DNA of 64,000 bases from Providencia lanzhouensis (GCF_050469745.1 NZ_CP174123.1:1-64000); one strand, 5' to 3'. Positions 3,603-63,428 are shown, counted from the stretch's first letter. The notes: generated by a model not told the origin, from the sequence alone. Made by a program: numbers and translations.

Positions 3603-6035
<2,433 letters not shown>

Positions 6036-6061
6036 TCGATTTTCCAGAGAAGTTATTAAAT

Positions 6062-6093
6062 AACCCTATACTTCGGTATGGGGTTATTTTTTT
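6062..6093 (+). terminator. Rho-independent terminator after gyrB
   Basis: Stem aaccctatac / gtatggggtt with a ttcg loop, followed by a T-run (tttttttat), 27 bp after the gyrB stop. Confidence 0.6.
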
Positions 6094-6293
6094 ATTTAAT
6101 TTTAATCTTAAGCATCTATTTATTATTAATTCCAATTCAAATTTAATTAAATAAAATGACTAATTGAATTTCATTAATAGAATGAAGAATAAAAATAAAG
6201 TTTGTCTCATTTGATTTTTAATTTATAGAAAATAAAAATTACCGCATTAAGATGAAATAGATTTTACCCTCTCTAAAAATCTATAGGTCTATA

Positions 6294-9281
6294 ATGAACA
6301 AAATAACTCCTGCTGTATCGTTCAGTTTATTTGCTCTATTTAACACCCAGATTACCTTTGCAAACTCAGATTATATCGATGCCAGTAAATTCATCATTGA
6401 TCAGCGAAATCAGCGATTTGACGAACTAAAAAACCAAATCATCCCGCCGTACCCAGCCCCGCAGTCTCAAGCGGCGCAATGGGATAAAGACGTTAGCCAG
6501 CAAGCAACGCAATTAACAGGAAAGCGCAAAAAGAACGCTGAAAAAGATAAACAAAGCACACCAGAATATCTTTTTAACATTTACCTAGAATACGTATTTA
6601 ATAAAAAAGGGTTTAATTATAATGATTTTAAACAAATTAAAGCCTATAACCGTTTAAATAATTTATTCCATTTAGCCACCTTTGCAGATGACCCAATTCA
6701 AAACCGAGCTCGCTCAATGGATTTTATTCTCAAAGACTATTATTTACGTGGTCGCCCAAATCAAGTTCTCGATGATAAAGGCGAATATCTCCTAAACTAT
6801 GTCGATATTACAGGCTCTTCTTACCCAAGCGGACATACTTGGAATGGATTTAAACAAGCGGCTGTATTTGCCACAATTTTTCCAGAAAAAGGAGCTCAAT
6901 TTTTTGATAGAGCCATCGGCTACGGGGAAAGCCGTGTGATTGTCGGCGCACATTTCCCAACCGATACCATTGCCTCGCGCGCCGCCAATTATTATCTTCT
7001 CGCCCATTTACTGAAAGAGGATAAAACCGCCAATGCACTGATTAGCCAAGCCAAAGAAGTACGCCAAGAACTGAACACTCAATGCACCATCAATGAAAAA
7101 AAATGCAAACCACCAATAGGCTCACTTCCCTCTTTTAATGAAAACCTAGGTTATTACGCTAAGCAAAGTGAGCAGCCATCTCAGGCACTTCGCGTTGATC
7201 AAGTCCCTGCTGACGCCGCGTATTTGCTACGCTCTCGCTTTGCCTATCTTAATAAATCTCAATGGCAGCAAATTATTGCAGGCACCGCCTATCCCACTAA
7301 CTCTTTAGCGGGCTGGGAAGCTAAACAAAATCAACCCGAAAGCCACTGGGGGCTGATTAACTTACCGAAAGCCTATAAAGGGCCTACGCATTTCGCTGAA
7401 GATTGGGTCGTCAATCAACGGGTAACTCAAGACGACGTTGCAAACGTCGGCATTACCGATATTTGGAGTAATAACATCGATGGCAAAGGGCGGTTAATCA
7501 AACAAGGGGAAGGCTCATTAACCTTAGCTGGAATTAACCATTTTGCAGGGCTTGAAATACAGCAAGGCCGTGTGGTTTTAGTACAAGAAAACCACTTAAC
7601 AGGCCCCGTCAATGTCAAGGGTGGAAAGCTTGAGGTCAAAGACATCCTACATGCGCCAGTCAACGTCACCAATGGCACATTACAGCTCACTCACAGCATT
7701 AAAAATACAGTGACATTAAACCAAGGAGCCCAATTTATAGCTTCTGGCTTGGTTGATGACTTAGTGGTTAATAGCGGTGCTATCTTAACCCCTGGAGATA
7801 ATCTTAAAGACCCAACACGGCGTATGACGGTGAATAATACTGCTACCTTCCAACCCGGCAGTGCATTCCATGTGAGTCTTCAAACAACACACACACAGGA
7901 ATTTGATGCCCTACATGCTGGCGGTACTGTGACTATTAACGGCGGTAAGGTCAAAGTGTTCTTCGCTGAAGAATCACCGCCATTCAATGAACGTATACCA
8001 AATGAAGATGAAATTCAGGGGCGATTTCGAACCGAATACAACATTATTCGCGCCCCCAATATCCAAGGGAAATTTGATAGCATCGAACCTAACTACCTGT
8101 TTATTGGTACTACATTGAATTATGGTACTGATCCTCGCTCCCCCTCGATGAAACTGGTTACACTCAATGTCGGTCGTAGTGAGCTGGCTTTTGATTCATT
8201 TGCAAAAACGCCAAACCAAACCGCCATCGCTCACGTCCTTGAAGATCTTCCATTGAATAACACCCTGTATAAACGCTTAATTCTCAGCAAAACCACAGCA
8301 GGGGTTTACGACCTTCTTCACACTCTATCCCCACAAATTCATATCGATACCCTAGCTAGCCAATTGAATAACCATCGCCAATATCACGGTACGCTGCTGC
8401 AACAAACTCGCGTATCGGAAAACATCGTCAAAGAGCGTGGAGATAACCGTGGCAATGTGTGGGTAAATATTCCCTACCATTGGGACAGAACCCAAAGCGA
8501 TGGAAATGCTTCCGGCTTTACAAACAGCAATTATGGCGTGTTCTTAGGGACTGATAAGCATTTCTTCAATGATGACGTTATCTTTGGAATGAGCACCGGT
8601 TTTACCAAAAATTCCGTCTCTGGCGGAGTTGGTCATAGCCATAGTAACAACTATTATTTAGCCGCTTACGGTTCCCTGCAATTGGCACCAATCACCTTAC
8701 GCGCAGGGCTTGGACACACATGGCACACCATCAAGACCGATAGAACAGTCACTTCATCCATTTATTCCGATCACAATACCGCCGACTACAAAGGCAAAAC
8801 CAACCACCTGTTTATAGAAGCGACTTATCCGTGGAAATCGGCATTCATCAACGCCGAACCGTTTGCAAACTTTGCCTTTACCAATGCCGAAAGCCATGGA
8901 TTTAAAGAAAAAGGGGAAAAAACCTCGCTGGTGACAGGTCGCCAATCCCTCGATGCCACGACCACAACGCTGGGATTACGTTTAGATAACCAATGGAAAG
9001 TGGGCAATACATCCTCAATCGATGTACACGGGGAATTCGGCTGGCAGCATCAATATGATAAGCGGGAGCGTGAAATGGCTTTCCGATTCGCCCACCGAGA
9101 CCAGCTTGCACCACCGCTAAACTATCGCGGGATTAATGCGCCGAAAGATGGCATGGCTATCAAACTGGGCTCCAGCCTTCAGCTGACAGACAATTTCAAA
9201 CTGTCCATGGATTACAGCCAATTTACTGCTAAGGGATATTTAGAAAATAATCTTGATGCCAAATTGTTAGTGTCGTTTTAA
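6294..9281 (+). CDS. Autotransporter with N-terminal class A acid phosphatase (PAP2) passenger domain
   Basis: 995 aa with a signal peptide (MNKITPAVSFSLFALFNTQITFA|NS). All three class-A NSAP motifs are intact: KDYYLRGRP (KX6RP), PSGHT (PSGH) and SRVIVGAHFPTD (SRX5HX3D). A beta-helix-like repeat region (GGKLEVKD..., NGTLQLTH...) follows, then a C-terminal beta-barrel ending ...KLLVSF. The upstream intergenic region is very AT-rich. Confidence 0.85.
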   Translation: MNKITPAVSFSLFALFNTQITFANSDYIDASKFIIDQRNQRFDELKNQIIPPYPAPQSQAAQWDKDVSQQATQLTGKRKKNAEKDKQSTPEYLFNIYLEYVFNKKGFNYNDFKQIKAYNRLNNLFHLATFADDPIQNRARSMDFILKDYYLRGRPNQVLDDKGEYLLNYVDITGSSYPSGHTWNGFKQAAVFATIFPEKGAQFFDRAIGYGESRVIVGAHFPTDTIASRAANYYLLAHLLKEDKTANALISQAKEVRQELNTQCTINEKKCKPPIGSLPSFNENLGYYAKQSEQPSQALRVDQVPADAAYLLRSRFAYLNKSQWQQIIAGTAYPTNSLAGWEAKQNQPESHWGLINLPKAYKGPTHFAEDWVVNQRVTQDDVANVGITDIWSNNIDGKGRLIKQGEGSLTLAGINHFAGLEIQQGRVVLVQENHLTGPVNVKGGKLEVKDILHAPVNVTNGTLQLTHSIKNTVTLNQGAQFIASGLVDDLVVNSGAILTPGDNLKDPTRRMTVNNTATFQPGSAFHVSLQTTHTQEFDALHAGGTVTINGGKVKVFFAEESPPFNERIPNEDEIQGRFRTEYNIIRAPNIQGKFDSIEPNYLFIGTTLNYGTDPRSPSMKLVTLNVGRSELAFDSFAKTPNQTAIAHVLEDLPLNNTLYKRLILSKTTAGVYDLLHTLSPQIHIDTLASQLNNHRQYHGTLLQQTRVSENIVKERGDNRGNVWVNIPYHWDRTQSDGNASGFTNSNYGVFLGTDKHFFNDDVIFGMSTGFTKNSVSGGVGHSHSNNYYLAAYGSLQLAPITLRAGLGHTWHTIKTDRTVTSSIYSDHNTADYKGKTNHLFIEATYPWKSAFINAEPFANFAFTNAESHGFKEKGEKTSLVTGRQSLDATTTTLGLRLDNQWKVGNTSSIDVHGEFGWQHQYDKREREMAFRFAHRDQLAPPLNYRGINAPKDGMAIKLGSSLQLTDNFKLSMDYSQFTAKGYLENNLDAKLLVSF

Positions 9282-9310: not shown

Positions 9311-9358
9311 AAAAAATGGCACTGGAGCGTTTAATCACTCCAGTGCCATTCCTATTTT
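9311..9358. terminator. Bidirectional intrinsic terminator between the autotransporter (+) and asd (-)
   Basis: 13-bp stem aatggcactggag / ctccagtgccatt, flanked by an A-run on one side and a T-run on the other. Confidence 0.7.
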
Positions 9359-9378: not shown

Positions 9379-10485
9379 CTACAGCAGAATTCTCAACATA
9401 CGGCGCAGAGGCTCCGCAGCCCCCCACAGTAACTGATCGCCCACGGTAAACGCAGACAGATACTCAGGTCCCATGTTTAACTTACGCAGACGCCCTACTG
9501 GTGTGCTCAGAGTCCCCGTCACTGCCGCAGGAGTCAGTTCACGCATTGTAATTTCACGGTCATTCGGCACCACTTTCACCCACTCATTATGGGAAGCCAG
9601 CAGTTGCTCCACTTCATTCAGTGGCACATCTTTTTTCAGTTTCAGCGTGAATGCTTGGCTATGGCAGCGTAATGCGCCCACACGAACACATAAACCATCA
9701 ACCGGAATAATATTGCTGCCCGTTGCCAGAATTTTGTTGGTTTCTGCCTGCCCTTTCCACTCTTCGCGGCTTTGACCGTTTTCTAACGCTTTATCAATCC
9801 ACGGGATCAAACTGCCCGCTAGCGGAACACCGAACGCATCCGTTGGCATGGAACCACTGCGCGTAAAGTCTGTGACTTTTTTCTCGATTTCTAAGATGGC
9901 CGATGCCGGATTTTGCAGCTCTTTCGCCACTTGCGCGTGTAAAGAACCCATTTGTGACAACAGCTCACGCATATTGCGTGCACCCGCACCGGATGCCGCT
10001 TGATATGTAGCCACGGAAGCCCACTCAACCAAGTTATTCGCAAACAGACCGCCCAACGACATCAGCATTAAACTCACCGTACAGTTACCGCCGACGAAGG
10101 TCTTAATGCCTTTATTTAAGCCGTCTTGGATATGCTGATGGTTCACTGGGTCTAAAATAATAATCGCATCGTCTTTCATACGCAGTGCAGACGCGGCATC
10201 AATCCAGTAACCTTTCCAGCCCGCTTCACGTAATTTTGGATACACTTCATTGGTATAATCGCCGCCTTGGCAGCTAATAATAATATCCAGTGCGCTCAGT
10301 GCATCGATATCAAATGCATCTTGCAACGTGCTGCGATGACCACCAAAAACAGGCGCCTCAGCCCCATGCTGGGAGGTGGTAAAAAAGACCGGGTGAATAA
10401 CGTTAAAATCCCCTTCTTCTACCATTCTTTGCATCAATACGGAGCCGACCATTCCGCGCCAGCCAATAAACCCTACATTTTTCAT
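9379..10485 (-). CDS. asd: Aspartate-semialdehyde dehydrogenase
   Basis: Matches E. coli Asd along its length as recalled ([24 protein letters not shown]...LRRMLRILL). The ORF track starts 3 codons earlier (MKRM...); I placed the start at the Met equivalent to the E. coli start. Confidence 0.93.
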
Positions 10486-10712
10486 TCTCTTCACCCTGTC
10501 TGTTTACATACATCACCCAAAAAATTTCTATCCTCGACTTTCACTTTGCCAATCGAAGCTGGAAATTTTTCGGAAAGATAAAATTCAGAAATCATCAATC
10601 AACCGTATTAAACGTGACAAAATATGAACCAGTGTGCAAGTGAATTTCATCACTAATAGCAAGAAGATTAGTAATGACGCTAATAATTAGTAAAAACTTA
10701 TTGGTTGATAAT

Positions 10713-14705: not shown

Positions 14706-15344
14706 ATGAATTTGTTTTTAGAAAATTGCTTGGCTTTCCCAACCATTATCTTTAGCGGTTTACTGATTATTGTCCTGTTTTACTGGCTTTGTGCCGCTTT
14801 TGGTCTGTTAGATATTGATTTATTTAATATCGATACCGAATTGGATGCTGACGGCATCGATCTCACTGGCTTTGCTGGCTGGCTGACAAAACTTGGTTTA
14901 GCCGGAATTCCCGTCACCATTATCTTGACGCTATTCACCCTCTTCGGCTGGCTGATTAGCTACTTTGCTGCGCATTTATTCCTACGCTTTATTGATATGA
15001 CCTTGCTGCGTTACGCCGTTGGAGTCACGTCGCTAGTGATCACCGCCTTTATTTCCCTGCACTTAACCGCCATTTGCCTAAAACCCATCCGTAGCCGACT
15101 GGTTAATATTAATAAACCCAAAACGGTTCATCAGCTAATGGGAAAATTGGCAACCGTGCGCTCAGGGACTGTCACAGAACAAAATGGGGAAGCCACCTTA
15201 GAAGATGGCGGTGCGGGGCTGATTTTGCAGGTTAGAGCACCTAGCGCCGAAAATATTAAACGCGGGGATCGCGTCGTTATCATCAGTTATGACCCTCAAT
15301 CCCACAGTTACCAAGTTGTCACCGAGAACGAATTCAGGCAGTAA
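14706..15344 (+). CDS. yqiJ: NfeD-family membrane protein (YqiJ-like; N-terminal TM region plus C-terminal OB-fold)
   Basis: 212 aa with an N-terminal multi-TM segment and a soluble C-terminal beta-rich domain (…ATVRSGTVTEQNGEATLEDGGAGLILQVRAPSAENIKRGDRVVIISYDP…). It sits directly upstream of the flotillin gene, as in E. coli yqiJK. Confidence 0.75.
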   Translation: MNLFLENCLAFPTIIFSGLLIIVLFYWLCAAFGLLDIDLFNIDTELDADGIDLTGFAGWLTKLGLAGIPVTIILTLFTLFGWLISYFAAHLFLRFIDMTLLRYAVGVTSLVITAFISLHLTAICLKPIRSRLVNINKPKTVHQLMGKLATVRSGTVTEQNGEATLEDGGAGLILQVRAPSAENIKRGDRVVIISYDPQSHSYQVVTENEFRQ

Positions 15345-15418
15345 ACACAAAAAATAAACTACCTACTTTGCTAATTAATAAAGAATGACGACATCGTCAG
15401 AACCCATGGAGAAAAAAT

Positions 15419-17620
15419 ATGGATTTGGCTGAATACATGCCTTTTTTAACGGTTGTTGGGGGAGTGATCATCATCATTCTTGGGTTCTTTGGTTTATTTA
15501 AAGCCTTCTACATCAAAGTCCCTCAAGGTACCGCTCTGATTGTCAACGACATGTCGTCACAACCAAAAGTGCATTTCACGGGTGCGTTAGTGTATCCCGT
15601 TATCTACAAGAAAGAGTTTATGCGCATTTCGCTGCTGACGCTGGAAGTGGATCGCCGTGGTAAAGACGGCTTAATTTGCCAAGATAATTTACGTGCAGAT
15701 ATCACTGTTGCCTTCTATCTGCGTGTTAATGAAACCACCGAAGACGTCTTAAAAGTAGCAAAAGCCATCGGTGTTGAGCGCGCCTCTGACCATCAAGCCG
15801 TCAGCGCCCTATTCAGCGCTAAATTCTCTGAAGCCCTGAAAACGGTTGGTAAGCAATTAGAATTAGCCAAACTGTTTGAAGACCGTCAAAGCTTCCGTGA
15901 CCGTATTGTTGATGTGATTGGTAAAGACCTTAATGGTTACGCGCTAGAAGACGTAGCAATCGACTATTTAGAACAAACGCCGAAATCTGCCCTCGATCCG
16001 AATAATATTTTCGACTCCGAAGGTATTCGCAAAATCACTGAAATTACCGCTATCCACAATATCGAAACTAACCAAAAAGAGCGCGACCAAGAGTTAGCTA
16101 TCAAAAAGAAAAACGTGGAAACCCGCGAAGCGAGCTTAGCATTAGAGCGCCAACAAGCCGACGCTGAAGCCCGTCAAAAACGTGAAATTGATAATATCCG
16201 TGCACGAGAACAAGCTGAAACCCTACGCGTTCAAGAAGAAGAGCGCCTCAAGTCAGAGCAAGCGCGTATTCAAACTCAGCAAGAAATTGAAATTCGTGAA
16301 GAAAACCGCATGCGTGAAGTGGAAGTGGCTCAACAGAACCGCACCCGCGCCGTGGCTATCGAAGAAGAGCGTGTCAACCGTGCTCGCGAGCTAGAAATTG
16401 TCGCCCGTGAACGTGAAGTTGAGCTGCAACGTATTGAAAAAGAAAAAGCGCTAGAAGAAGAACGTAAAAATATCTCTAACGTGATCCGCGAACGTGTTGC
16501 CGTCGAAAAAACCGTCGCGCAGGAAGAGGAACGTATCAAGGAAGTCCGCGAAATTTCAGAAGCTGAGCGTATGAAGCAAGTCACCGTGATCAACGCCCAA
16601 GCGGAAGCTGAAGAAGCCTTAGTCCGCCAGGTGAAAAAAGCCGAAGCCGATGAAGCAAGTGCCAAGCACCGTGCAGAAGAAATCAGTACTATGGCACAAG
16701 CAGAACTGGAAGCTTCCGCCAAACAAGCTGAAGCCAAAAAACGCTTAGCGGAAGGGATTGAAGCAGAACATGCAGCATTAGGCTTAGCAGAAGCCCGTGT
16801 TCGCCAAGCCACTGCCGAAGCTGAAGAGAAAGAAGGTCTGGTTCAAGCCAATATCACCGCGGAAAAACTGTTAGCCGAAGCTCGTGGTCTGAAAGAAAAA
16901 GGCTTAACCGAAGCGCAAGTGATGGAAGCTAAAGCGAACGCCGAACGCCAGCAAGGTTTTGCCGAAGCGAAAATTCTGGAAGAAAAATTGGCAGCGCAGG
17001 CTCGTGGTGAAGAACAACAAGCCAACGCGAAAGAAAAACTGGGCTTGGCAGATGCAAAAGTCTTGGAAGAAAAACTGGCAGCCCAAGCTCGCGGTGAAGG
17101 TCAATTAGGGGCAGCGCAAGCCGAAGTGATTCGCCAGCGTCTGAAAGCGGAAGCTGACGGTCTGACTGATAAATTCCAATCTATGGATCACCTCAGTGAT
17201 ACGGCTCGTTCACATGAAGAGTTCCGTATGCGCCTTGAGAAAGAGTTCGAGCAATCCATGGCATCCATTGAAGCGAATAAAGAAATTGCTCGCGAGCAAG
17301 CGGATGTCCTGGCTGCGGCACTGAGCAAAACCAACATCGAAATTGTGGGCGGTGATGGCGACTTCTTTAACACCTTCTCCAAAGCGCTGAGCTTGGGTAA
17401 AGCCGTTGATGGGTTTATGGATAAAAGTAGCTTTGCCAAAGATAACCTTGAAAAGTTAGTCAATCGAGTCACAGAAGAGAAGAAAATTGATATCGCGTCC
17501 TTACTGCAACACCCTGAAGTCAAAGATTTAATCAATGGTTTTATGGCTGCAAAAAGCGCACCACAAACAGCGAAAAACATCGTGAACAAACCCGTGTCTT
17601 ACGATGATAACCAAAGCTAA
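15419..17620 (+). CDS. yqiK: Flotillin-like SPFH/band-7 protein (YqiK-like) with an unusually long coiled coil
   Basis: 733 aa with an N-terminal TM segment and SPFH domain (residues ~30-200). A ~450-residue E/A/R/Q/K-rich coiled coil follows and contains a 29-aa tandem duplication. E. coli YqiK is 553 aa. Confidence 0.85.
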   Translation: MDLAEYMPFLTVVGGVIIIILGFFGLFKAFYIKVPQGTALIVNDMSSQPKVHFTGALVYPVIYKKEFMRISLLTLEVDRRGKDGLICQDNLRADITVAFYLRVNETTEDVLKVAKAIGVERASDHQAVSALFSAKFSEALKTVGKQLELAKLFEDRQSFRDRIVDVIGKDLNGYALEDVAIDYLEQTPKSALDPNNIFDSEGIRKITEITAIHNIETNQKERDQELAIKKKNVETREASLALERQQADAEARQKREIDNIRAREQAETLRVQEEERLKSEQARIQTQQEIEIREENRMREVEVAQQNRTRAVAIEEERVNRARELEIVAREREVELQRIEKEKALEEERKNISNVIRERVAVEKTVAQEEERIKEVREISEAERMKQVTVINAQAEAEEALVRQVKKAEADEASAKHRAEEISTMAQAELEASAKQAEAKKRLAEGIEAEHAALGLAEARVRQATAEAEEKEGLVQANITAEKLLAEARGLKEKGLTEAQVMEAKANAERQQGFAEAKILEEKLAAQARGEEQQANAKEKLGLADAKVLEEKLAAQARGEGQLGAAQAEVIRQRLKAEADGLTDKFQSMDHLSDTARSHEEFRMRLEKEFEQSMASIEANKEIAREQADVLAAALSKTNIEIVGGDGDFFNTFSKALSLGKAVDGFMDKSSFAKDNLEKLVNRVTEEKKIDIASLLQHPEVKDLINGFMAAKSAPQTAKNIVNKPVSYDDNQS
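16967..17100 (+). repeat. 87-bp (29-codon) in-frame tandem duplication inside the flotillin coiled coil
   Basis: gcgaaaattctggaagaaaaattggcagcgcaggctcgtggtgaag (16967..17012) is matched by gcaaaagtcttggaagaaaaactggcagcccaagctcgcggtgaag (17054..17099), an 87-nt offset. Protein repeat: AKILEEKLAAQARGEEQ... / AKVLEEKLAAQARGEGQ... Confidence 0.7.
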
Positions 17621-17663
17621 TTTATCAATATTCAGGCTTTTCAAGTAAGTTTTATACCTCATC

Positions 17664-17696
17664 CCGCCAAGTTGCAGCACATAGGCAACTTGGCGG
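17664..17696 (+). terminator. Hairpin (attenuator/partial terminator) between the flotillin gene and the giant ORF
   Basis: 12-bp perfect stem ccgccaagttgc / gcaacttggcgg with loop agcacatag, followed by tttatgagcgtatcttttttt. Confidence 0.5.
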
Positions 17697-17740
17697 TTTA
17701 TGAGCGTATCTTTTTTTAAGACCAAGGAAATTCGTTAAAC

Positions 17741-20536
17741 ATGTCAGAAACCCAAGATGTGAATCGCGAACAGGAAATTCTCGACAGTGCCGTCGCGGAA
17801 GGTGGTGCGTACGAAATATTACGCAAGCGCTTAACCGAACAAGGGCAGCAACTTCACCAAAAAGCAGCTCAACTCAACGACAGCCGGTTGACTGAATTTG
17901 GTCAAAGCCAGATGGACATTATCGGGCGTATCCGTATTCGTACCGAAAATAACTGCCAAGCAAGGGACATTGTCCGTGTCGGTGACTGGCTGCTATTTGG
18001 CTATAACGTTTTTCTGGGTCTGAAAAAAGAAACTCACATTGAAGATGTTTTTTCCTTATATCAACTCACTGAAAATGAAGGTGATTTTGATGTAATCTCT
18101 GTCCCTTACGAAGAGACATTCCTCAATGATACGCGCTTTGTTCAGGATTTTACTGAGCTATATACCTATTACAAAAACACGCAATTACTGCAATTGGTCG
18201 AGCGTGATGGCAAGCTGTTAGCCAGCTTCCAAATTGGTGATCGGTTAACCGACGTGCGTGTTTTCCGCTGGTCAATTTCCAGCGATAAATCCCGCATCGA
18301 ATACATCGATAACCGGGGTGAACGTGATATCGCCCTACCCCCCACCAATGATTTCGAATGGGTACGTACTACGCGGGAAAATACCGTTAATGGACGCTAT
18401 CCTCACATTAATATTCTCGATACCGTCTTTGTGGAAACCATCGGCGGCGACCTAACCATCAAATGTGAAAATAATACCGAAGATGGGTTGGGCATATACC
18501 GCGAAGCGGTACTCGATAAAAACCAATCCCTCGATGACGCCCAAATTGAATATGCTCAGACTGGCAGCCTAATTTTACTCAAAATCTTGCCATACCGCGA
18601 AGAGAGCTGGCGCTATCTGGTTTACAACATTCTGAATCAAACCGTTCACCGTATTGATGCCATAGGGCAAGCGTGCGTGCAGTTGCCGGAAGATCACGGA
18701 ATTATCTTCCCAGGGGGTTACTACCTGCAAAACGGGGAGTACAAAACCTTCGAGCAACCAATGGATGGCATGCGTTTTCGTCGTCTGCGCCGCTCACCCA
18801 ACGGGGAAGATGTGCTGTATGTGTTTTATTCCCCGAACCAAGGTCGTATCGCCCTTTTCAATTACAATTTAATTGAACGTAAACTTGCCGTACCATTAAT
18901 CGGTCATGGTTATGCCATGCTCGAAGATGGCAAAATGGTGCTGTTCGAAGGGGAAGGTGACGAAGCCACTCGCGTTCACCCTATGCAGGTGTGGCAAACC
19001 CCATTCTATTCTGACGAATTTGCCGATAAGCAGCCGCCACGGGGTGGGTTTCTTGGGCGTATCGGTAATGCCGATTTAGTCCGCGGGATCTCCGAAATTC
19101 TCCATGTCGCCAAAGAGATTGAAGGCAACCAAGTTTCCGTTTCCCGCTATGAACAGCTCAGCCAGCAACCTAAAAACTTGCTGGATATTTTCTATTGGTT
19201 TAATGACGAACAATGCTTAGGTATTGGCAAACTCTTAAAAGAGATCGCTCAAACCAGTGAGTTGGTACTCGACGAATACGAGAAAGTCGAAAGCATCCGC
19301 CAGCAATCCGTCAAATCAATGAATGAGGCGGTCACTCGCCAACGCTCCTTACTGTCCCTCACATTGCCTGAAGGATGGACGGATATTCAACAATTTGTAG
19401 ATGGGCTAAACGCCTTAAATGCCCAACAAGGGCATCTGATTTCATTGCGAGAATTCCGCTATATGGATCTCACAAAACTCAGTGAGATGGAAAATGAAAT
19501 CACCGAAGCACAGCAACGCGTTTCCCAAGGCACTGCGCAATTTCTTGCCAGCAACAAAGCTCTGCAACCGTTTAAAACTCAGCTCGCGACCTTTGAAGAG
19601 TTAATTGAAAAAGCACAAACCAGCGCGCAGTTAGATGTCCCAATGAATGACATGGAAAAAATGTCAGCGGATTTGGACATGCTCTCTAATTTAATGGCTT
19701 CATTGAGTTTTGATGATGTCACCTTACAGACCCATATCATCGATGCCATTTCGCACATTTATGCCCAGTTAAACCAGTCCCGCGCCCGTTTGCAGCAAAA
19801 ACGTAAATCTCAAACTAGCATTGAGAGCGTGGCGCAATTTGGGGCGCAGTTCCGCCTATTTAGCCAAGGTATCACCAACGCATTATCCCTCGCGACTGAC
19901 CCAGAACGTTGTGATGATCAGTTATCCCGATTGCTGGTTCAATTAGAAGAGCTAGAAAGTCAGTTTAGCCATCACGATGAATTTCTTGATGATATTCTGG
20001 CAAAACGCGAAGAATTACTGGAAACGTTTGAATCCCATAAACAAATCCTGATTGATGACCGCCAGCGCCGTTCGCAGAATTTATTAACGGCCGCCGACCG
20101 CTTATTAGAAAGCCTTCAACGCCGTACTGTACGCTTGCAAAACCAAGATGAACTGAATGCGTTTTTTGCTACCGACCCGCTCGCACAAAAAACCCGTGAA
20201 ATCATCGAGAAACTACGAGAAATCAACGATAACGTCAAAGCTGACGATATCGATGCCAGACTCAAAGCCTCTCGTGACCAAGCCATTCGCATTTTGCGGG
20301 ATAAAACCGATATCTTTGAAGATGGCGGCAACATTATTAAGCTGGGTCGCCACCGTTTCAGTGTTAACACCCAAGAGCTTGACCTGACTATCTTGCCAAA
20401 AGATAACCAACTGTGGGTGTACCTCACCGGAACGGATTTCCAAGAACCCATTGAGAACGCCGAACTTACACAGTTGCAACCTTATTGGACAGCCAACCTT
20501 GAATCTGAATCTGATACCGTTTATCGCGCTGAATAG
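17741..20536 (+). CDS. Large coiled-coil protein, N-terminal part (931 aa), same frame as the next ORF
   Basis: No recognisable catalytic motif. It ends at a TAG (20534..20536) that lies in the same reading frame as the downstream 698-aa ORF. Confidence 0.6.
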   Translation: MSETQDVNREQEILDSAVAEGGAYEILRKRLTEQGQQLHQKAAQLNDSRLTEFGQSQMDIIGRIRIRTENNCQARDIVRVGDWLLFGYNVFLGLKKETHIEDVFSLYQLTENEGDFDVISVPYEETFLNDTRFVQDFTELYTYYKNTQLLQLVERDGKLLASFQIGDRLTDVRVFRWSISSDKSRIEYIDNRGERDIALPPTNDFEWVRTTRENTVNGRYPHINILDTVFVETIGGDLTIKCENNTEDGLGIYREAVLDKNQSLDDAQIEYAQTGSLILLKILPYREESWRYLVYNILNQTVHRIDAIGQACVQLPEDHGIIFPGGYYLQNGEYKTFEQPMDGMRFRRLRRSPNGEDVLYVFYSPNQGRIALFNYNLIERKLAVPLIGHGYAMLEDGKMVLFEGEGDEATRVHPMQVWQTPFYSDEFADKQPPRGGFLGRIGNADLVRGISEILHVAKEIEGNQVSVSRYEQLSQQPKNLLDIFYWFNDEQCLGIGKLLKEIAQTSELVLDEYEKVESIRQQSVKSMNEAVTRQRSLLSLTLPEGWTDIQQFVDGLNALNAQQGHLISLREFRYMDLTKLSEMENEITEAQQRVSQGTAQFLASNKALQPFKTQLATFEELIEKAQTSAQLDVPMNDMEKMSADLDMLSNLMASLSFDDVTLQTHIIDAISHIYAQLNQSRARLQQKRKSQTSIESVAQFGAQFRLFSQGITNALSLATDPERCDDQLSRLLVQLEELESQFSHHDEFLDDILAKREELLETFESHKQILIDDRQRRSQNLLTAADRLLESLQRRTVRLQNQDELNAFFATDPLAQKTREIIEKLREINDNVKADDIDARLKASRDQAIRILRDKTDIFEDGGNIIKLGRHRFSVNTQELDLTILPKDNQLWVYLTGTDFQEPIENAELTQLQPYWTANLESESDTVYRAE

Positions 20537-20581
20537 CTCGCGTACTCCATCATCTATGCCGCAGCAAAACGCCAAGATGGT

Positions 20582-22678
20582 TTGGATTACGACACCCTAA
20601 AAAGTGCGCTGTCTGCCCCTGAAAAAATCGACAAACTGGTGCGTGATTTTGCGGCTCCACGCTACAAAGAAGGCTACGAAAAAGGGATCCACGACCACGA
20701 CGCTATCGCGATATTGAAAAAGCTGATCCCGATTGGTGAAAGCGCGGATTTACTGCGCTTCAACCCAACAGCTCGCGCCATTGCGGCGATTTTTTGGCAT
20801 CACATTCAAAGCAACGAATACCCTGCCCAATGGCCAGAACGAGCCAGAACCGCGATGAATATCCGCCAGCTATTCAATAACGATGATGCCCTTTTAGATC
20901 TTCAAGCGGAGATCGAGGCAGATGTCAGCTTATTCCTGCAAGATAATCCAATTAATTGCCAAGCTCATGAGCAAGCTCAAGCTGCGGAATACCTCAGTTT
21001 TGCGTTAGCCAGAACGCCGATTGAATTGGTGTACAGCAAATATGCGCGGGACTTAGTGGCAGCACTACAAACGCGCTTAGAAGAAGCCCATATGTGGCTG
21101 GATTTCAATCATTCACAGCAAAACCTTGGCACTCGCTATGCTCAGCGCTGGGCGCTGTTGCAAAATTGGCTGCAAGGGCTGTGTTCGATTGACGAATTTG
21201 CACATTTACGTCCATACATTCCAGGCGCCATCGCCATTATTATCTTAGATAAAATGGCATCGGCACGTTATAGCGAAGCCGATTTATACTTTAAAGTTAC
21301 TGGATTACTGGGGGATCACCCGACAATCCACAACCAAACTCTCTCGTTAAGTTTGGATGACTTTTTCAGTCGAATGCGCGAACAGCGCAAGCAATTTATT
21401 CCAGCCTTCCGTAAATACCAAGCACTGCGTCAGCGCATTGTGAGTGAAGAGCGCAGCCGCCTAAAACTTCATGAGTTCAAAGCTAAGCCACTGAGCTCAT
21501 TTGTGCGTAACAAGCTGATCAATGACGTCTATTTACCGATTATCGGTGACAACATGGCGAAGCAAATTGGCGCTCTAGGCGAAAACAAGCGTACCGATTT
21601 AATGGGCTTGTTACTGATGATCTCCCCGCCAGGTTACGGTAAAACGACCCTGATGGAGTACGCGGCTGACCGCCTTGGTTTGATCTTTATGAAGATTAAT
21701 GGTCCTGCGCTTGGGCATGATGTGCTGTCCCTCGACCCAGAGCAAGCCCCGAATGCTACCGCCAGACAAGAGCTGGAAAAACTAAACCTCGCCCTCGAAA
21801 TGGGCAACAACGTGATGCTGTATGTGGATGATATTCAACATACTCACCCTGAATTTTTACAGAAATTTATCTCCCTGTGTGATGGAACCCGTCGCATCGA
21901 AGGGGTATGGAAAGACAAAACCAAAACCTACGATATGCGCGGTAAAAAATTCTGTGTTGTCATGGCGGGTAACCCGTATACCGAATCTGGCGAAGTGTTC
22001 CGTATCCCTGATATGCTCGCCAACCGTGCGGATATTTATAACCTGGGTGAAGTGCTCGGTGGGATGGATGATGCCTTTGCATTGAGCTACATAGAAAACA
22101 GCCTGACCTCAAACCCAGTATTAGCACCGTTGGCGCTGCGCGATTTAAATGATTTGTATTTGCTGGTGGATAAAGCCATGGGCAAATCAGTCTCCACTAA
22201 TGCACTCAGCTACCCGTATTCCGATGCGGAAGTAAATGAAATTACTGCGGTTATTTCCCGATTACTCAGCCTGCGCGATGTGGTTCTGAAGGTAAACCAG
22301 CAATATATTGCCAGTGCCGCACAGTCCGATAAATATCGAACCGAGCCGGCATTCCGCCTGCAAGGCAGCTACCGAAATATGAACAAGCTCAGCGAGAAAG
22401 TCTCTTCCGTTATGAATGATGATGAATTAGAGAGATTGCTGGATGACCATTATCTTGGGGAAGCGCAATTATTAACGACAGGTGCTGAAGAGAACTTATT
22501 GAAGCTGGCAGAATTACGCGGAAGGCTGAATGAGAAAGATGCAGCACGCTGGCAGCAAATCAAGAAAGATTTCTTGCGTAACAAAGCATTAGGTGGTGAT
22601 AATGCCGATGTGGGCGACCGCGTTGTCACTCAGCTCGCCCAACTGGTTGAAAGCGTACAATCTCTCGGACATCGATAA
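20582..22678 (+). CDS. MoxR-like AAA+ ATPase, C-terminal part of the giant ORF (ORF-track start is TTG)
   Basis: 698 aa. Walker A LMISPPGYGKTTLMEY, Walker B VMLYVDDIQ, and a MoxR/AAA_5-type sensor region VVMAGNPYTESGEVFRIPDMLANRADIY. It shares a frame with 17741..20536 (both start positions ≡ 2 mod 3), separated only by TAG plus 15 sense codons. There is no SD before the TTG. Confidence 0.6.
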   Translation: MDYDTLKSALSAPEKIDKLVRDFAAPRYKEGYEKGIHDHDAIAILKKLIPIGESADLLRFNPTARAIAAIFWHHIQSNEYPAQWPERARTAMNIRQLFNNDDALLDLQAEIEADVSLFLQDNPINCQAHEQAQAAEYLSFALARTPIELVYSKYARDLVAALQTRLEEAHMWLDFNHSQQNLGTRYAQRWALLQNWLQGLCSIDEFAHLRPYIPGAIAIIILDKMASARYSEADLYFKVTGLLGDHPTIHNQTLSLSLDDFFSRMREQRKQFIPAFRKYQALRQRIVSEERSRLKLHEFKAKPLSSFVRNKLINDVYLPIIGDNMAKQIGALGENKRTDLMGLLLMISPPGYGKTTLMEYAADRLGLIFMKINGPALGHDVLSLDPEQAPNATARQELEKLNLALEMGNNVMLYVDDIQHTHPEFLQKFISLCDGTRRIEGVWKDKTKTYDMRGKKFCVVMAGNPYTESGEVFRIPDMLANRADIYNLGEVLGGMDDAFALSYIENSLTSNPVLAPLALRDLNDLYLLVDKAMGKSVSTNALSYPYSDAEVNEITAVISRLLSLRDVVLKVNQQYIASAAQSDKYRTEPAFRLQGSYRNMNKLSEKVSSVMNDDELERLLDDHYLGEAQLLTTGAEENLLKLAELRGRLNEKDAARWQQIKKDFLRNKALGGDNADVGDRVVTQLAQLVESVQSLGHR

Positions 22679-23256
22679 TGCAAACTTGGCTAAGCCCGCG
22701 AATTAAATTACTGATTACCCTTGCGGGTTTGCTGATCGCTATTCAAATCGCCAATAGTTTAAGTGGCTACGCGCTTGTTGGGTTCGGCATCCAACCAAGA
22801 ACGCTGCACGGGCTGGTGGGGATTATCTTCGCCCCACTGATCCACGGTGATTGGGCACATCTTCTGAGTAATCTGCCGCCGTTACTGGTTTTAAGCGCCC
22901 TGCTGCTGCATGATTCCATTCGAAAATATGCTTATGCCAGCGCGTTTATTATTGTGGTTGGCGGCTTGATTGTCTGGCTAGTGGGCAGAAATGCGCTGCA
23001 CATTGGCGCTAGCGGCTGGATTTTTGGGCTTTGGGGCTTATTGATTGCCCAAGGTTTTTTCCGCCGCAAACTGTTAGATATCGTTATCGCCCTGTTAGTA
23101 CTGTTCTATTTTGGTGCGATGGCGAGCGGGTTATTGCCTGTTCACCAGCAAATATCGACAGAATCCCATATTGCCGGTGCTATCGCCGGAATTGCCTATG
23201 CATGGTTAGCCAATAAAAAATTAAAAGCGACGCCGCCGACTACCCTTTCAAAGTAA
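22678..23256 (+). CDS. Short rhomboid-family intramembrane serine protease
   Basis: 192 aa, about 6 TM. Catalytic Ser is in GASGWIFGLWG (the GxSG motif) and catalytic His in AHIAGAIAGIAYAW, the arrangement of GlpG. Its ATG overlaps the upstream stop (ATAATG). Confidence 0.8.
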   Translation: MQTWLSPRIKLLITLAGLLIAIQIANSLSGYALVGFGIQPRTLHGLVGIIFAPLIHGDWAHLLSNLPPLLVLSALLLHDSIRKYAYASAFIIVVGGLIVWLVGRNALHIGASGWIFGLWGLLIAQGFFRRKLLDIVIALLVLFYFGAMASGLLPVHQQISTESHIAGAIAGIAYAWLANKKLKATPPTTLSK

Positions 23257-28846: not shown

Positions 28847-29923
28847 TTATTGCTTATCATACACACTCGGTACAAACACATTTCGTCCGATCATTTTCTC
28901 GATTTGCTTATTTAAAATGGTTTCTCGGTAGTGTTTATGATTGCCTTGAGGCTCATGTAAGTAGGTATTTTTCGGGTAAATTGGCGTTTCATAAATGAGT
29001 TGAGCACATTCAGTCCGAATATCTTTCAGCCAATTACTGACCGAAGCATTGGCGCGGTGATGGCGCATCGCTTCGATATCAATCACCCCATAAACATAGG
29101 TAGAACCATTAGTATCCTCTTGTTTACCCACGATTTTACCCTTGTAGTCCACAATCAGTGAACGACCGCCACCACAGTCAATTGGCGCTTGTGTGGTTGG
29201 GAACATATACATTGAGCCAATATTCGGCGCCACAACATAGAAATTATTTTCCAACGCACGGGCGCGGTTAGAAATTTCAAACAGGTCATTTTCAGTAAAT
29301 GGCGTTGGTAATGAAGCGCGGTACACCACTTCTGCCCCATTTAATGCCAGACCACGACCGTTTTCAGGGAAGTTTCCTTCCATGGCCATCATTACCCCTA
29401 ATCGACCAATTTCAGTATCAACCACCGGCCAGAAAGATTGTAATGAACGCCCATATTTTTTTATCCACTCATCGTACAGATCATGAGGCGATGCCGAACG
29501 TTCACACGGCAACAAAGAGGACATTTTATGGTGTTTCAGGATAATGTTGCCTTTGGGATCAATAACAAACCCAACGTTAAACATAATTCCTGGCCAATCA
29601 GGATCACGAGTTTTCGCTTGCGCCATGATGTACACATTTTGAGATTTCGCTAATTCACCCAGTCTATCAGTCTCAGGGCCTGGAATATCAATAGCGCCAT
29701 CTTTTAAGAATTCAGCAATCGGTAAATCCAATGCTTCATCGTTGAAACCTTGTAAAGCACCTTCAGGGAGAACAAGTAAACGAACAGGGAGATCCAATGA
29801 AGATAGCCACAGCGCACCGTGAGATAGCTCCTCAAGATGGTCGATATTTTTCATAATATCGCTACGCGTTTTTATTCCCCACGTTGTTGGCACTAAACCC
29901 ACTACACCATATGGCTTTATCAT
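28847..29923 (-). CDS. Nitrilase-superfamily aliphatic amidase/formamidase homologue (AmiE/AmiF-like) with the catalytic Cys position occupied by Ala
   Basis: 358 aa. The catalytic Glu motif is present (LVLPEGALQGF, cf. AmiE VVFPEYSLQGI) and so is the Lys region (ILKHHKMSSLLPCE). The Cys motif reads VMMAMEGNFPE where AmiE has LIICDDGNYPE. The DNA reads ...gtaatgatggccatggaaggaaacttccctgaa... on the minus strand, so the Ala is real in this sequence. Confidence 0.7.
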   Translation of the reverse strand: MIKPYGVVGLVPTTWGIKTRSDIMKNIDHLEELSHGALWLSSLDLPVRLLVLPEGALQGFNDEALDLPIAEFLKDGAIDIPGPETDRLGELAKSQNVYIMAQAKTRDPDWPGIMFNVGFVIDPKGNIILKHHKMSSLLPCERSASPHDLYDEWIKKYGRSLQSFWPVVDTEIGRLGVMMAMEGNFPENGRGLALNGAEVVYRASLPTPFTENDLFEISNRARALENNFYVVAPNIGSMYMFPTTQAPIDCGGGRSLIVDYKGKIVGKQEDTNGSTYVYGVIDIEAMRHHRANASVSNWLKDIRTECAQLIYETPIYPKNTYLHEPQGNHKHYRETILNKQIEKMIGRNVFVPSVYDKQ

Positions 29924-30257
29924 AATAATTCTCCGATTTTATTTTCGATTTACCTGCATTTGGCATTGTTCAAAAATCAAACTCATCGAATATTATTCAT
30001 ATGTTAAATTTATGTCAAATAAATATTAAATTATACTTTTTGGATATTCACACTTAATCCATTCAATACTTCACGCTAATATTTAAAATAAAAAATCAGG
30101 CTATAAACATATTAACAATCTAGTGATTATCTTATTAGTTATAAATATAACCTCGCGTTACTTTATTTTAAAATACATAAATATCAATTAGATGAAAAAT
30201 TATTGCTATTTTTAATTTCCTCATAAAATTAATATAGGAAAACATTTTCATTCTTAA

Positions 30258-30332
30258 AAACAGAAACAAAAACTGCGAGTAAACTTAAGTTTTATTAATA
30301 TTTAATCCAAAAACAAAAACTGCAATAAATAT
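30258..30332. repeat. Two copies of an AAAAACAAAAACTGC(G/A)A(G/A)TAAA motif in the 560-bp AT-rich divergent promoter region
   Basis: aaaaacagaaacaaaaactgcgagtaaac (30258..30286) and atccaaaaacaaaaactgcaataaat (30307..30332) are direct repeats ~50 bp apart. They lie upstream of the MFS gene at 30483. Confidence 0.4.
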
Positions 30333-30482
30333 CCTATTTCTGCATTTATTGTACATTTAATTAACATTTCTATTGTGATTTAACTTAAAAAAGTAAAGTG
30401 TAATGTCGGCTTTTCAGATTTAAAAAATATACGTACTTGCCATTAAAAAAATATCGGTCGAATAACGATTAGAGAGTGATTT

Positions 30483-31775
30483 ATGACAATACAAACATCT
30501 GAAATTACATCTGTCTCCTCAAAACGCACGACCTTTAAAGTCATGTTGGTTTGCTGGCTAAGCATTTTATTTGAAGGTTATGACGTGGGGGTGATGGGTG
30601 CAGTTTTACCCACACTCTCTGAATATAAAGAGTGGAATTTAACCCCTATTGAATTAGGCGCCTTGAGCAGTTACACCCTTGTGGGAATGTTCTTCGGTGC
30701 TTTTATTATCGGAACGTTAAGCGAGTTATATGGTCGACGACGCATGCTACTAATCTGCGTTACGCTATTTTCGTCCACCATGTTAGCCACCGCTTTAGCG
30801 CCAACACCTTGGTTTTTTGGATTAATGCGTTTTATCGGCGGAATTGGACTTGGGGGCGTGATCCCCGTAGCCGCGGCTCTCACTATTGAATATTCACCAA
30901 CTGAAAAACGGTCGTTTAACTATGCCATTATGTACTCAGGCTACTCTCTGGGTATCTTATGTGCTGCGCTAGTGGCGATTGCGATTCTTAGCCAATTTGG
31001 TTGGCGTGGTGTCATGATGATAGGGTCATTGCCTTTGTTATTAATTTGGCCAATGTCCCGCCTATTGCCTGAATCTATTGAATACCTGAATAACCGAGGG
31101 CAACACGAAAAAGCGAGAAAACTGGCGGAGAAACTTGAAGTTACCTATCACGAACCTGTGAAACAAGAAAAGCAGGCTTCCCGTAGCTTAAAAGAAGTTG
31201 TCGCGATTATCTTTTCCAAAGATTACCTGCGAGCAACCTGCTGTTTTTGGGTCGCTCTGTTCTGTGGTGGCTTCATCGTTTACGGCTTAAATACGTGGCT
31301 GCCATCCATTATGCGTAAAGAAGGTTATGATCTCGGCTCCAGCTTAACATTCTTAGTGGTGTTCAGTTTATCTTCTGCGCTAGGCGGGTTATTCCTCGGG
31401 AAAGTCGCCGATAAATGTGGCGCTCGCGGTACAGTTGCATTCTTCTTTATGCTAGGTGCAATGGGTATTGGATTGATGGTCTTCAAGCAAAATATCTATA
31501 TGAATTATTTACTAGTGGGCCTCGCGGGGATTGGTTGTATTTCTGCGCCATTAATTTTGACGGGCTATGTCGCCCATTTCTATCCATCCAGTGTGCGGGC
31601 TTCTGCAACAGGTTGGACAATGAGTATTTCCCGTGTAGGTGCCATGTCTGGTCCCATGTTTGGCGCTTATATTGCCAGCCTTGGGGTCGCCAGCAGTTGG
31701 AACTTTGCCGCGTTCTCTGCGGTGACGGTAATAGGCGGTATTGCCGTAATGCTACTGCCAAGTAAACGCTTATAA
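30483..31775 (+). CDS. MFS transporter (aromatic-acid/metabolite:H+ symporter-like, 12 TMS)
   Basis: 430 aa with MFS signatures (GRRRMLLICVTLF; sugar-transporter-like loop motif). Confidence 0.75.
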   Translation: MTIQTSEITSVSSKRTTFKVMLVCWLSILFEGYDVGVMGAVLPTLSEYKEWNLTPIELGALSSYTLVGMFFGAFIIGTLSELYGRRRMLLICVTLFSSTMLATALAPTPWFFGLMRFIGGIGLGGVIPVAAALTIEYSPTEKRSFNYAIMYSGYSLGILCAALVAIAILSQFGWRGVMMIGSLPLLLIWPMSRLLPESIEYLNNRGQHEKARKLAEKLEVTYHEPVKQEKQASRSLKEVVAIIFSKDYLRATCCFWVALFCGGFIVYGLNTWLPSIMRKEGYDLGSSLTFLVVFSLSSALGGLFLGKVADKCGARGTVAFFFMLGAMGIGLMVFKQNIYMNYLLVGLAGIGCISAPLILTGYVAHFYPSSVRASATGWTMSISRVGAMSGPMFGAYIASLGVASSWNFAAFSAVTVIGGIAVMLLPSKRL

Positions 31776-34830: not shown

Positions 34831-35128
34831 ATTTTTACCCCTAAATCAAATTTAGTGTGAATTATTATCTTATTTAAAATTACATTACCCTGATCACAGA
34901 CAAGCATTCTCACGCTATAATCAAACAGTTCATCAATTCAATCACTCAAATACATTTTGTAATCATAAGTAATCACCATTTGCTCATTAATGATTATTTG
35001 AAGTGACACTTTTTGACCAGTAAAAAACCCTACATTTGTTGAGTCGATCACAACAAATATAGTAAAAATCAATATTTACATATAGTTAAAGAATTAAATT
35101 GGCATGGGTAATTTTTGAATTTAGTGAG

Positions 35129-35156
35129 TTGACAATTTTCATTATAATCATATAGA
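35129..35156 (+). promoter_or_regulatory. Candidate sigma70 promoter for ulaR
   Basis: TTGACA (35129..35134), a 16-nt spacer, then TATAGA (35151..35156), ~100 bp upstream of the ulaR ATG. Confidence 0.35.
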
Positions 35157-35257
35157 ATCAAATCCAATCATTTTGAGTCAAAAGTTATCATGGAATCGTG
35201 ATTATAATAATCATCACTAAAGACGAAAAATGATTATACAGAAATAAGGCGCTACAC

Positions 35258-62838: not shown

Positions 62839-63428
62839 AACTTTGTGTACTCCCAGCTCTCTCAGCCTAAGAAACGCTAAGGGTTGTAATAAAACTGCCT
62901 TTGCTTAAATGTGTCAAGAGACAAAAACGTGCAAATTATACGGGCAGGCGAAATGAATTCAATCAGTAAGTAGCGAAAAGGTGAATAAATATTTAATTTT
63001 TTCGAGATAGCGCAGAATTAAGACAGGTAGGATTAATAATTTATTAACGATTCGTCGCCTAAAAATAACTTTATGTGATTAAGATCACAACAAATCTTAA
63101 TCTCTTGATTAATAACCACACTCTTTATCCGGTTAGAACCCTATTTTTAAGCCATAAATCAAATAATTAAATTTGTTATTTTTTAGGCAAAAAAATGAAA
63201 AAATAATTTGGATATTTCATTATTAATGCTAAAACGATTTAGTAATAATATTAGATTAGGAATATTATTACGATTAATGTGATTATTTTTGATATATATT
63301 CGTTAATATTCTGTAAATAACAAGTGAATTTAAATTATCTTTATTTTAATTATATATAAAAATAGCCGTAACATTGTAAATGTACGGCTACCGCTCTAAA
63401 AGATAAAATAATTTTACTAGAAACTACG

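Follow-up and report, generated by a model that had tools for sequence, protein, structure and literature searches.

What kind of protein is encoded directly behind gyrB in Providencia lanzhouensis, and is its gene a recent arrival or an old resident of the site? To answer this, we analysed a stretch of 64,000 nucleotides (NZ_CP174123.1:1-64000 of GCF_050469745.1), which is called the window below. The gene in question is an open reading frame (ORF) at 6294..9281 on the + strand, which starts with ATG and encodes 995 amino acids (aa). A sequence-only reading of this locus had described an autotransporter whose passenger opens with an intact class A acid phosphatase (PAP2) domain, had regarded this as an unusual architecture, and had proposed horizontal origin and H-NS control from the AT-rich DNA in front of the gene. 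Our results make it quite probable that the product is a type Va autotransporter of the same kind as MapA of Moraxella catarrhalis and serves as a non-specific acid phosphatase on the cell surface, with activity and localisation predicted from sequence and model. The gene itself appears to be old at its site.

Domain structure and catalytic residues

Pfam search of the translated gene matched PAP2 (PF01569) at aa 145-235 (E 1.2e-12; 48.1 bits, cut-off 27.2), a PATR repeat at aa 401-428 and the autotransporter beta-domain PF03797 at aa 722-975 (E 3.2e-49), and the NCBIfam model TIGR01414 also matched the barrel. The pair of domains expected by the sequence-only reading was thus recovered, with a significant PAP2 match. 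The N-terminus has MNK, the hydrophobic core ITPAVSFSLFALF and NTQITFA followed by NS, which looks like a typical Sec leader; this call was made by inspection of the translation. At the other end the protein finishes with LLVSF, so the final residue is Phe.

The AlphaFold2 model, which was run on a 63-sequence alignment, covered the full length with a mean predicted local distance difference test score (pLDDT) of 88.5 and a predicted template modelling score (pTM) of 0.69. Behind a disordered leader it has a helical domain (~24-270), an ordered junction of loops and helices (~271-370), a beta-helix (~371-628), helices between 633 and 710 including a long one (681-710), and a barrel (720-995). 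Together with the domain matches, this gave the borders of the parts, all on the + strand. The putative Sec signal peptide occupies aa 1-23 (6294..6362), with predicted cleavage after TFA and pLDDT below 50 for aa 1-18. It is followed by the all-helical class A-type acid phosphatase (PAP2) domain at aa 24-270 (6363..7103), called the head here and supported by Pfam, PDB sequence matches and Foldseek, and by a junction module at aa 271-370 (7104..7403), which leads from the head to the beta-helix, was recognised by its conservation and was modelled mostly at pLDDT 84-95. The beta-helical stalk at aa 371-630 (7404..8183) has the PATR repeat at its opening and was supported by Pfam, the model, Foldseek and NCBIfam, while the helical linker at aa 631-719 (8184..8450) was taken from the AlphaFold secondary structure, with barrel-plus-helix matches to NalP, EspP and BrkA. 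The beta-barrel with its terminal Phe makes up aa 720-995 (8451..9278; PF03797, TIGR01414 and Foldseek).

Each part was matched separately against the PDB with Foldseek, and TM-scores were normalised to the target. The head matched 7f17 (0.73), 1iw8 (0.67-0.69) and PhoC 9qci (0.64), all with probability 1.00, and class A acid phosphatases overall scored 0.64-0.74; the PDB sequence matches to the head were also acid phosphatases (E 3e-11 to 5e-6 overall, and 3e-11 to 1e-7 for PhoN, PhoC and the P. aeruginosa enzyme). The stalk matched the passenger of Serratia Ssp (8e7f), and Ssp and fusolisin were the PDB sequence matches to junction and stalk. For the barrel, EstA (3kvn) and AaaA (9oqa) came on top, together with EspP, NalP, Hbp, BrkA and AIDA-I, and the scores were 0.88 for NalP (1uyn) and 0.77 for EspP (2qom). 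With a predicted Sec leader, a PF03797 barrel with a terminal aromatic residue, a helical linker and a modelled beta-helical passenger, the protein has the features of a type Va autotransporter, and helix 681-710 of the model is expected to lie in the barrel pore. Pfam, NCBIfam, the AlphaFold model, Foldseek and the PDB matches therefore bear out the sequence-only reading as far as the parts of the protein are concerned, that is, a Sec signal, a passenger opening with an intact class A-like PAP2 domain, a beta-helical stalk, and a C-terminal barrel ending in Phe.

The three catalytic motifs, which the same reading had called intact, could all be read in the translation. Motif 1 (KX6RP, phosphate binding) is K147-DYYLRG-R154-P155 at 6732..6758, motif 2 (PSGH, with the general acid His) is P178-S-G-H181-T at 6825..6836, and motif 3 (SRX5HX3D, with the nucleophilic His220) is S213-R-VIVGA-H220-FPT-D224 at 6930..6965, each on the + strand. 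The spacers between them are 22 and 31 residues long, and both fall within the limits given in the literature (12-54 and 31-54). In the 63-sequence alignment, P155, P178, S179, H181, S213, R214, H220 and D224 were invariant, and K147, R154 and G180 were at least 90% conserved. Because the catalytic residues are kept to this degree in 63 homologues, the PAP2 head reads as an enzyme under purifying selection and not as a decayed domain. It is also the best conserved part of the protein, with identities of 43-50% against 28-38% for the stalk. In the same alignment, a Cys pair before the junction consisted of C264 (at least 90% conserved) and C271 (invariant), and the junction region had the invariant residues L311, L312, R315, Y318, L319, T331, W352, L357, G363, D389 and W391.

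The head shares KX6RP/PSGH/SRX5HX3D and the all-helical fold with the class A acid phosphatases (PhoN of Salmonella, PhoC of Morganella and the Escherichia blattae enzyme; PDB 2a96, 9qci, 1d2t and 7f17). However, those enzymes are free periplasmic oligomers of ~25-27 kDa and do not have the ~100-aa conserved junction, whereas the domain in the window is the N-terminal head of a predicted 995-aa outer-membrane protein. The NCBIfam PhoC equivalog was matched partially, with 41 bits against a cut-off of 430. We read the protein as class A-like in its mode of catalysis, but not as an orthologue of PhoC or PhoN.

Homologues and the MapA precedent

A search of 5.8 billion proteins gave 103 matches, and nearly all of the top ~70 clusters had PF01569 together with PF03797; the combination of PAP2 with an autotransporter domain was present in at least 65 clusters at 90% identity. 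The closest relatives (75-96% identity) came from Providencia zhijiangensis, P. rustigianii and P. alcalifaciens, followed at 35-45% by other Providencia, Proteus, Serratia, Acinetobacter, Ignatzschineria and a Plautia symbiont, and at 25-40% over partial length by Pseudomonas, Bartonella, Rhizobium, Burkholderiaceae, Nicoletella and Moraxella. When species-representative genomes were scanned, the spread was the same, with Psychrobacter, Rodentibacter, Herbaspirillum, Agrobacterium and Carnimonas in addition, and homologues with PAP2 and barrel were also found in Pasteurellaceae. With head and junction (aa 24-400) as query, an exhaustive HMMER search found 29 clusters (50% identity) at E <= 1e-30 among 1.84 billion representatives, and nearly all were 830-1400 aa long. 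Judged from these sequences, the PAP2-headed autotransporters are a small yet clearly established family.

Some proteins with the same parts are built in another way. In P0147 (1943 aa), PAP2 and junction module are internal (aa 976-1341) and two stretches were matched, and a relative in Psychrobacter pygoscelis (L021) is much longer, with an ORF of ~1800 aa, so the phosphatase head seems to be combined with other passenger modules in some lineages. In metagenomic proteins (P0075, P0077, P0083, P0093; P0090, P0095), related PAP2 domains are fused to a VanY-type D-Ala-D-Ala carboxypeptidase (PF01427) or to a Fibrobacter-type domain (PF09603). Actinobacterial and Lactobacillus proteins (L032-L077) have the second half of PAP2 with the junction module.

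Cluster P0066, with 1252 member sequences and the source name 'acid phosphatase autotransporter', is M. catarrhalis MapA, a protein of 940 aa. BLASTP aligned aa 13-488 of the window protein with MapA (35% identity, E 2e-81), and SRVIVGAH233FPTD of MapA fell exactly on S213...H220...D224, which means that H233 corresponds to H220; there was no BLAST alignment with MapA beyond residue ~490. In a multiple alignment (MAFFT), head and junction were 37-38% identical to those of MapA, and stalk and barrel 14-15%. The C-terminal half of MapA matched neither PF03797 nor any NCBIfam autotransporter model, and the Nicoletella relative matched a BafA-type model. MapA is reportedly located in the outer membrane with none in the culture supernatant, and the exchange H233A is said to abolish its activity.

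In the literature, MapA is given as the M. catarrhalis acid phosphatase autotransporter described in 2008 (Hoopman et al. 2008, J Bacteriol 190:1459, as cited in PMC9289746, PMC3419190 and PMC5424252). With reference to Hoopman et al. 2008, PMC5424252 presents it as an outer-membrane acid phosphatase with a 23-aa leader, in which residues 24-279 resemble class A non-specific acid phosphatases, His233 is the active-site residue, and residues 672-940 form a conventional autotransporter beta-domain. The review PMC9289746 names MapA as the only member of its functional class that has been characterised and assigns it a 'Type 2' architecture, i.e., a catalytic N-terminal domain on a beta-helix. A further review groups MapA with protease autotransporters other than the serine protease autotransporters of Enterobacteriaceae (SPATE), that is, with the non-SPATE proteases (PMC3419190).

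MapA and the window protein have the same order of parts (23-aa leader, class A-type PAP2 head, junction, beta-helix and C-terminal barrel), and all catalytic residues align. By sequence, the window protein and MapA are clearly homologous, and this architecture has been known since 2008, so the earlier description as unusual was an overstatement, also in view of the number of clusters that have it. The two proteins differ in stalk, linker and barrel, where the low identity to MapA stands against a C-terminal half that is strongly like EprS and Ssp, and in their hosts, since MapA is from Moraxellaceae and the window protein, known from sequence only, is from Morganellaceae. They would thus represent a common kind of architecture, but on scaffolds of a different, or an extremely diverged, lineage. 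The esterase EstA and the aminopeptidase AaaA also have a hydrolase on a type Va barrel; however, their catalytic folds are unrelated, and the enzyme fills the entire passenger without a beta-helix (PMC9289746).

Comparison with subtilase-type autotransporters

The EprS-like NCBIfam match covered aa 453-977 (E 1.2e-82, 278 bits against an equivalog cut-off of 1700), and EprS-type stalk and barrel were found in the window protein and in the Proteus, Pseudomonas, Bartonella and Rhizobium relatives at E 1e-82 to 1e-128. In the junction, fusolisin was matched by NCBIfam (aa 309-434) and by PDB 8axg (aa 349-437), and the matched segment of fusolisin joins the subtilase domain to the beta-helix. The subtilase autotransporters (EprS of P. 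aeruginosa, Ssp of Serratia marcescens, fusolisin and NalP) thus share a homologous junction, beta-helix, linker and barrel with the window protein, but they carry an S8 protease domain in the position where the window protein has PAP2, and Pfam found no peptidase S8 domain (PF00082) in it. The simplest reading is that the phosphatase head sits on a subtilase-autotransporter scaffold in the place of the protease, and this agrees with the clustering of MapA as given in PMC3419190. As PAP2 replaces the S8 domain, the protein probably has no autoprocessing.

The region upstream of the gene

Between gyrB (3618..6035, + strand) and the autotransporter gene lies an intergenic region of 258 bp (6036..6293) with 20.9% GC (79% AT), against 44.3% GC for the window, and 0.6% of the 258-bp segments in the window are as AT-rich. 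Its first ~60 bp are taken up by the gyrB intrinsic terminator, which the terminator scan placed at 6058..6097 on the + strand (14-bp stem, 4-nt loop and T-run); this hairpin is kept in both P. alcalifaciens and P. rustigianii, and one base pair of its stem differs by a compensatory substitution. The identity of the region with these two species was 79-83%, slightly above the 69-77% at third-codon positions of the ORF, which fits a constrained promoter region. The region has fewer promoter-like sites than its shuffles. The sole candidate from the consensus scan was a weak putative sigma-70 promoter, ATGACT-16 nt-TAGAAT, at 6156..6183 on the + strand (9/12 matches), and its -10-like element (TAGAAT/CAGAAT) is kept in the two sister species. 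A Shine-Dalgarno-like AGG (6285..6287, + strand) could be read 6 nt 5' of the ATG, and the block TCTATAGGTCTATAATGAACA is invariant in three species. Rfam found nothing meaningful in the whole window at gathering thresholds or in 5900-6500 at E up to 1, and hence no known riboswitch or small RNA in the AT-rich region. Upstream of some orthologues, CTGTCAT-like partial half-sites of a Pho box were spotted by eye, without statistics.

Gene position, origin and allele classes

The window opens with dnaA, dnaN, recF and gyrB, so the region is origin-proximal on the chromosome. The 3' neighbour of the autotransporter gene is the convergent asd (9379..10494, - strand), with an mdtL-like gene of the major facilitator superfamily (MFS) and then a LysR gene beyond it. 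Between the convergent genes is a hairpin with an 18-bp stem (9312..9353), which the terminator scan scored on the - strand; on the + strand the stem is followed by a short T-run only (TATTTTA). The hairpin is a good asd terminator and is probably shared with the autotransporter gene. The 995-aa protein has the same sequence as WP_430247884.1 (Providencia sp. PAZ2 / 'P. lanzhouensis'), and the gene order is repeated on a public contig.

For synteny, the GyrB, Asd, MdtL-like and LysR proteins of the window were compared by tblastn with the loci of homologues. The gene stood directly downstream of gyrB in seven other Providencia genomes (P. alcalifaciens, P. rustigianii, P. rettgeri, P. heimbachae, P. 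vermicola, sp. Je.9.19 and sp. Me31A), and this common position is hard to bring together with the idea that it was acquired recently and horizontally and is silenced by H-NS on curved, AT-rich upstream DNA, which we consider unlikely. The family has a patchy distribution across phyla, and the P. burhodogranariea copy, at a different site, grouped with Acinetobacter copies, as horizontal movement would have it; but the ORF in the window has 44.0% GC and 42% GC at third codon positions (gyrB, 45%), which match the neighbouring genes, and there is no integrase, transposase or transfer RNA gene at its flanks. A-tracts in 6036..6293 number 23, above the 16.2 +/- 2.7 of shuffles, but they are without 10-11 bp phasing (their score of 0.154 lies below the shuffle mean of 0.288, and 94% of shuffles reach it or more), and the H-NS high-affinity motif is not in excess there (1 match against 1.26 expected). 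The low GC content of the spacer, and of the regions in front of the orthologues in every genus examined, would also favour acquisition and silencing, yet ~60 bp of the spacer belong to the gyrB terminator and the window holds three further intergenic stretches that are equally AT-rich, so this extremity is not unique to the spacer. Of these stretches (minimum 258-bp GC 18-25%), the one at 29871-30549 precedes an MFS transporter gene, that at 34841-35349 precedes the gene of a DeoR regulator, and that at 62951-63519 adjoins gidB.

In other Providencia, Proteus and Acinetobacter, the upstream regions of the orthologues have 18-26% GC whatever the locus, which means that the AT-richness is real and ordinary for promoters of the PAP2 autotransporter family. 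Of the claims made earlier about 6036..6293, the figure of ~80% AT stands, and that of 'curved-DNA-like' A-tracts is not supported. H-NS prefers DNA of this kind, and AT-richness is the one feature of the region that points to H-NS control, so such control could not be upheld as it had been stated. Horizontal origin was not supported by the native-like composition, the flanks or the shared site. As the gene seems to be old at the gyrB-downstream site within Providencia, the comparison of loci does not support a recent acquisition.

At this site, three allele classes were found, which are 37-49% identical between classes: that of the window, P. alcalifaciens and P. rustigianii, that of P. rettgeri, P. 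heimbachae and Je.9.19, and that of P. vermicola and Me31A. In the same genomes GyrB is 94-97% and Asd 93-99% identical. The rettgeri class shares more identity with the Proteus copies (51-58%) than with the remaining classes of Providencia. The divergence could come from a surface protein that evolves very fast, or from in-situ replacement by recombination through the conserved flanks, and a crude neighbour-joining tree fits both.

The content of the gyrB-asd segment is variable within Providencia, because two genes, one for a sulfatase and one for a DUF1622 protein, separate the autotransporter gene from asd in P. rettgeri (L005, 11108-13113) but are absent from the window. In Proteus terrae (L002-L004, 11258-18934), the gene is at another locus and adjoins insertion sequence fragments and a two-partner-secretion (TPS) locus of contact-dependent inhibition (CDI)-like type, with a 4427-aa TPS/PT-VENN protein and orphan PT-VENN and SymE-like genes.

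Other genes in the window

Elsewhere in the window, 14706-23256 (+ strand) holds five co-directional ORFs of 212, 733, 931, 698 and 192 aa that are almost unannotated. The 931-aa product was the only one matched by Pfam (DUF3686, 'ATPase involved in DNA repair', and DUF7902), and the 192-aa product had a weak rhombosortase-like match; PADLOC found nothing in this cluster, and NCBIfam otherwise nothing. The first two of these ORFs also follow the ROK kinase gene in P. rettgeri (L005).

Discussion

From these parts we propose the following mechanism. The 23-aa leader would direct Sec export, and the C-terminal ~275 aa would form a 12-strand-type barrel with helix 681-710 in its pore. The passenger would be threaded outward, the beta-helix (aa ~371-630) would fold outside the cell, and the junction (aa 271-370) with the all-helical PAP2 domain (aa 24-270) would finish at the tip. 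With class A chemistry, His220 would attack the phosphomonoester to give a phospho-histidine and His181 would protonate the leaving group, while Lys147, Arg154, Ser179, Gly180 and Arg214 would hold the phosphate and Asp224 would support His220. Because there is neither a protease domain nor a known cleavage motif, the enzyme probably remains attached to the outer membrane, as is reported for MapA. Its likely role would be to free phosphate or dephosphorylated nutrients from external organic phosphoesters, and the AT-rich 200 bp past the gyrB terminator would be the gene's own promoter region. What the analysis shows directly is the order of the domains, the intact catalytic residues with their conservation, the fold, the homology to MapA and the synteny, and from these we infer enzymatic activity, surface retention, substrates and regulation.

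Several points weigh against a surface acid phosphatase of the MapA kind. Classical class A acid phosphatases are oligomers, and the copy in the window would be tethered and might have to act as a monomer. Its stalk and barrel have no BLAST-detectable similarity to those of MapA, so that MapA is no safe guide to whether the passenger is retained or released. The Pho box (CTGTCATAWAWCTGTCAY) was not found at <=3 mismatches anywhere in the window, which leaves a role in phosphate starvation without regulatory support. A literature search for PAP2 or phosphatase autotransporters gave MapA only, and nothing on Providencia, Proteus or other members of the Morganellaceae (text matches to 'PAP2' in PMC10303873 refer to the vector pAP20 and are irrelevant).

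Other readings of the protein differ in what they take from the scaffold and from the head. Some database names would make it a subtilase-type serine protease autotransporter, since cluster members carry the source names 'Extracellular serine protease precursor' and 'subtilase-type serine protease' (P0107 and P0108) and the EprS-like match is strong by E-value; but that match is limited to aa 453-977 and stays far below its bit cut-off, the N-terminal domain is PAP2, and there is no S8 domain, so we rejected this identity and leave it next to no chance. The orthologues were mis-named because stalk and barrel are EprS/Ssp-like. From the same scaffold one might expect the passenger to be cleaved and released as a soluble extracellular phosphatase, as members of the EprS/Ssp/NalP-like group are usually processed. 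In that group, however, processing is done by the subtilase domain that is missing here, and although outer-membrane proteases could possibly cut the linker, no SPATE-type Asn-Asn cleavage motif is evident in it, and release seems improbable to us. With regard to the head, the PAP2 superfamily is established to include lipid-phosphate phosphatases, ecto-nucleotidases and vanadate-dependent haloperoxidases, and the head could be specialised for one of these activities, with the junction shaping specificity; lipid targets might be host or own-envelope lipids (lysophosphatidic acid, LPA; sphingosine 1-phosphate, S1P; lipid A; undecaprenyl pyrophosphate, C55-PP). A weak NCBIfam match to the undecaprenyl-diphosphatase SepP (E 0.022) counts for this, yet by sequence as well as by fold the closest matches are without exception soluble class A acid phosphatases such as PhoN and PhoC, and the model has no transmembrane helices, unlike lipid phosphatases. 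The junction has many invariant residues without an assigned role, and the module of second-half PAP2 and junction recurs in other architectures, which also speaks for a special function, but acid phosphatase is the activity given for its homologue MapA, and we hold such specialisation to be rather improbable. The cell-surface non-specific acid phosphatase of the MapA kind is thus the reading that we prefer.

The Providencia protein would then be a further MapA-type member, carried by a subtilase-type rather than a MapA-type transport unit. The family could record the exchange of a protease head for a PAP2 head on a subtilase scaffold. The gyrB-downstream site, with its three allele classes, may further be a hot spot, with strong diversifying selection on a surface phosphatase or its repeated replacement. 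Taken with the invariant junction residues, this could mean that the enzyme is a factor exposed to host or phage with a specific target, which could be host phospho-signals or extracellular nucleotides, and no housekeeping scavenger; we offer this as a tentative idea with a rather small chance of being right. Phosphatase-headed autotransporters are widespread in Gram-negative bacteria and not a new architecture; clustering at 90% identity gives at least 65 groups of them, and clustering at 50% about 29. Public records mis-name the orthologues as serine proteases. A Morganellaceae member on a subtilase-type scaffold would be a useful second model for the role of surface acid phosphatases, and the extreme divergence at a fixed, origin-proximal locus makes a tidy case for surface-protein evolution.

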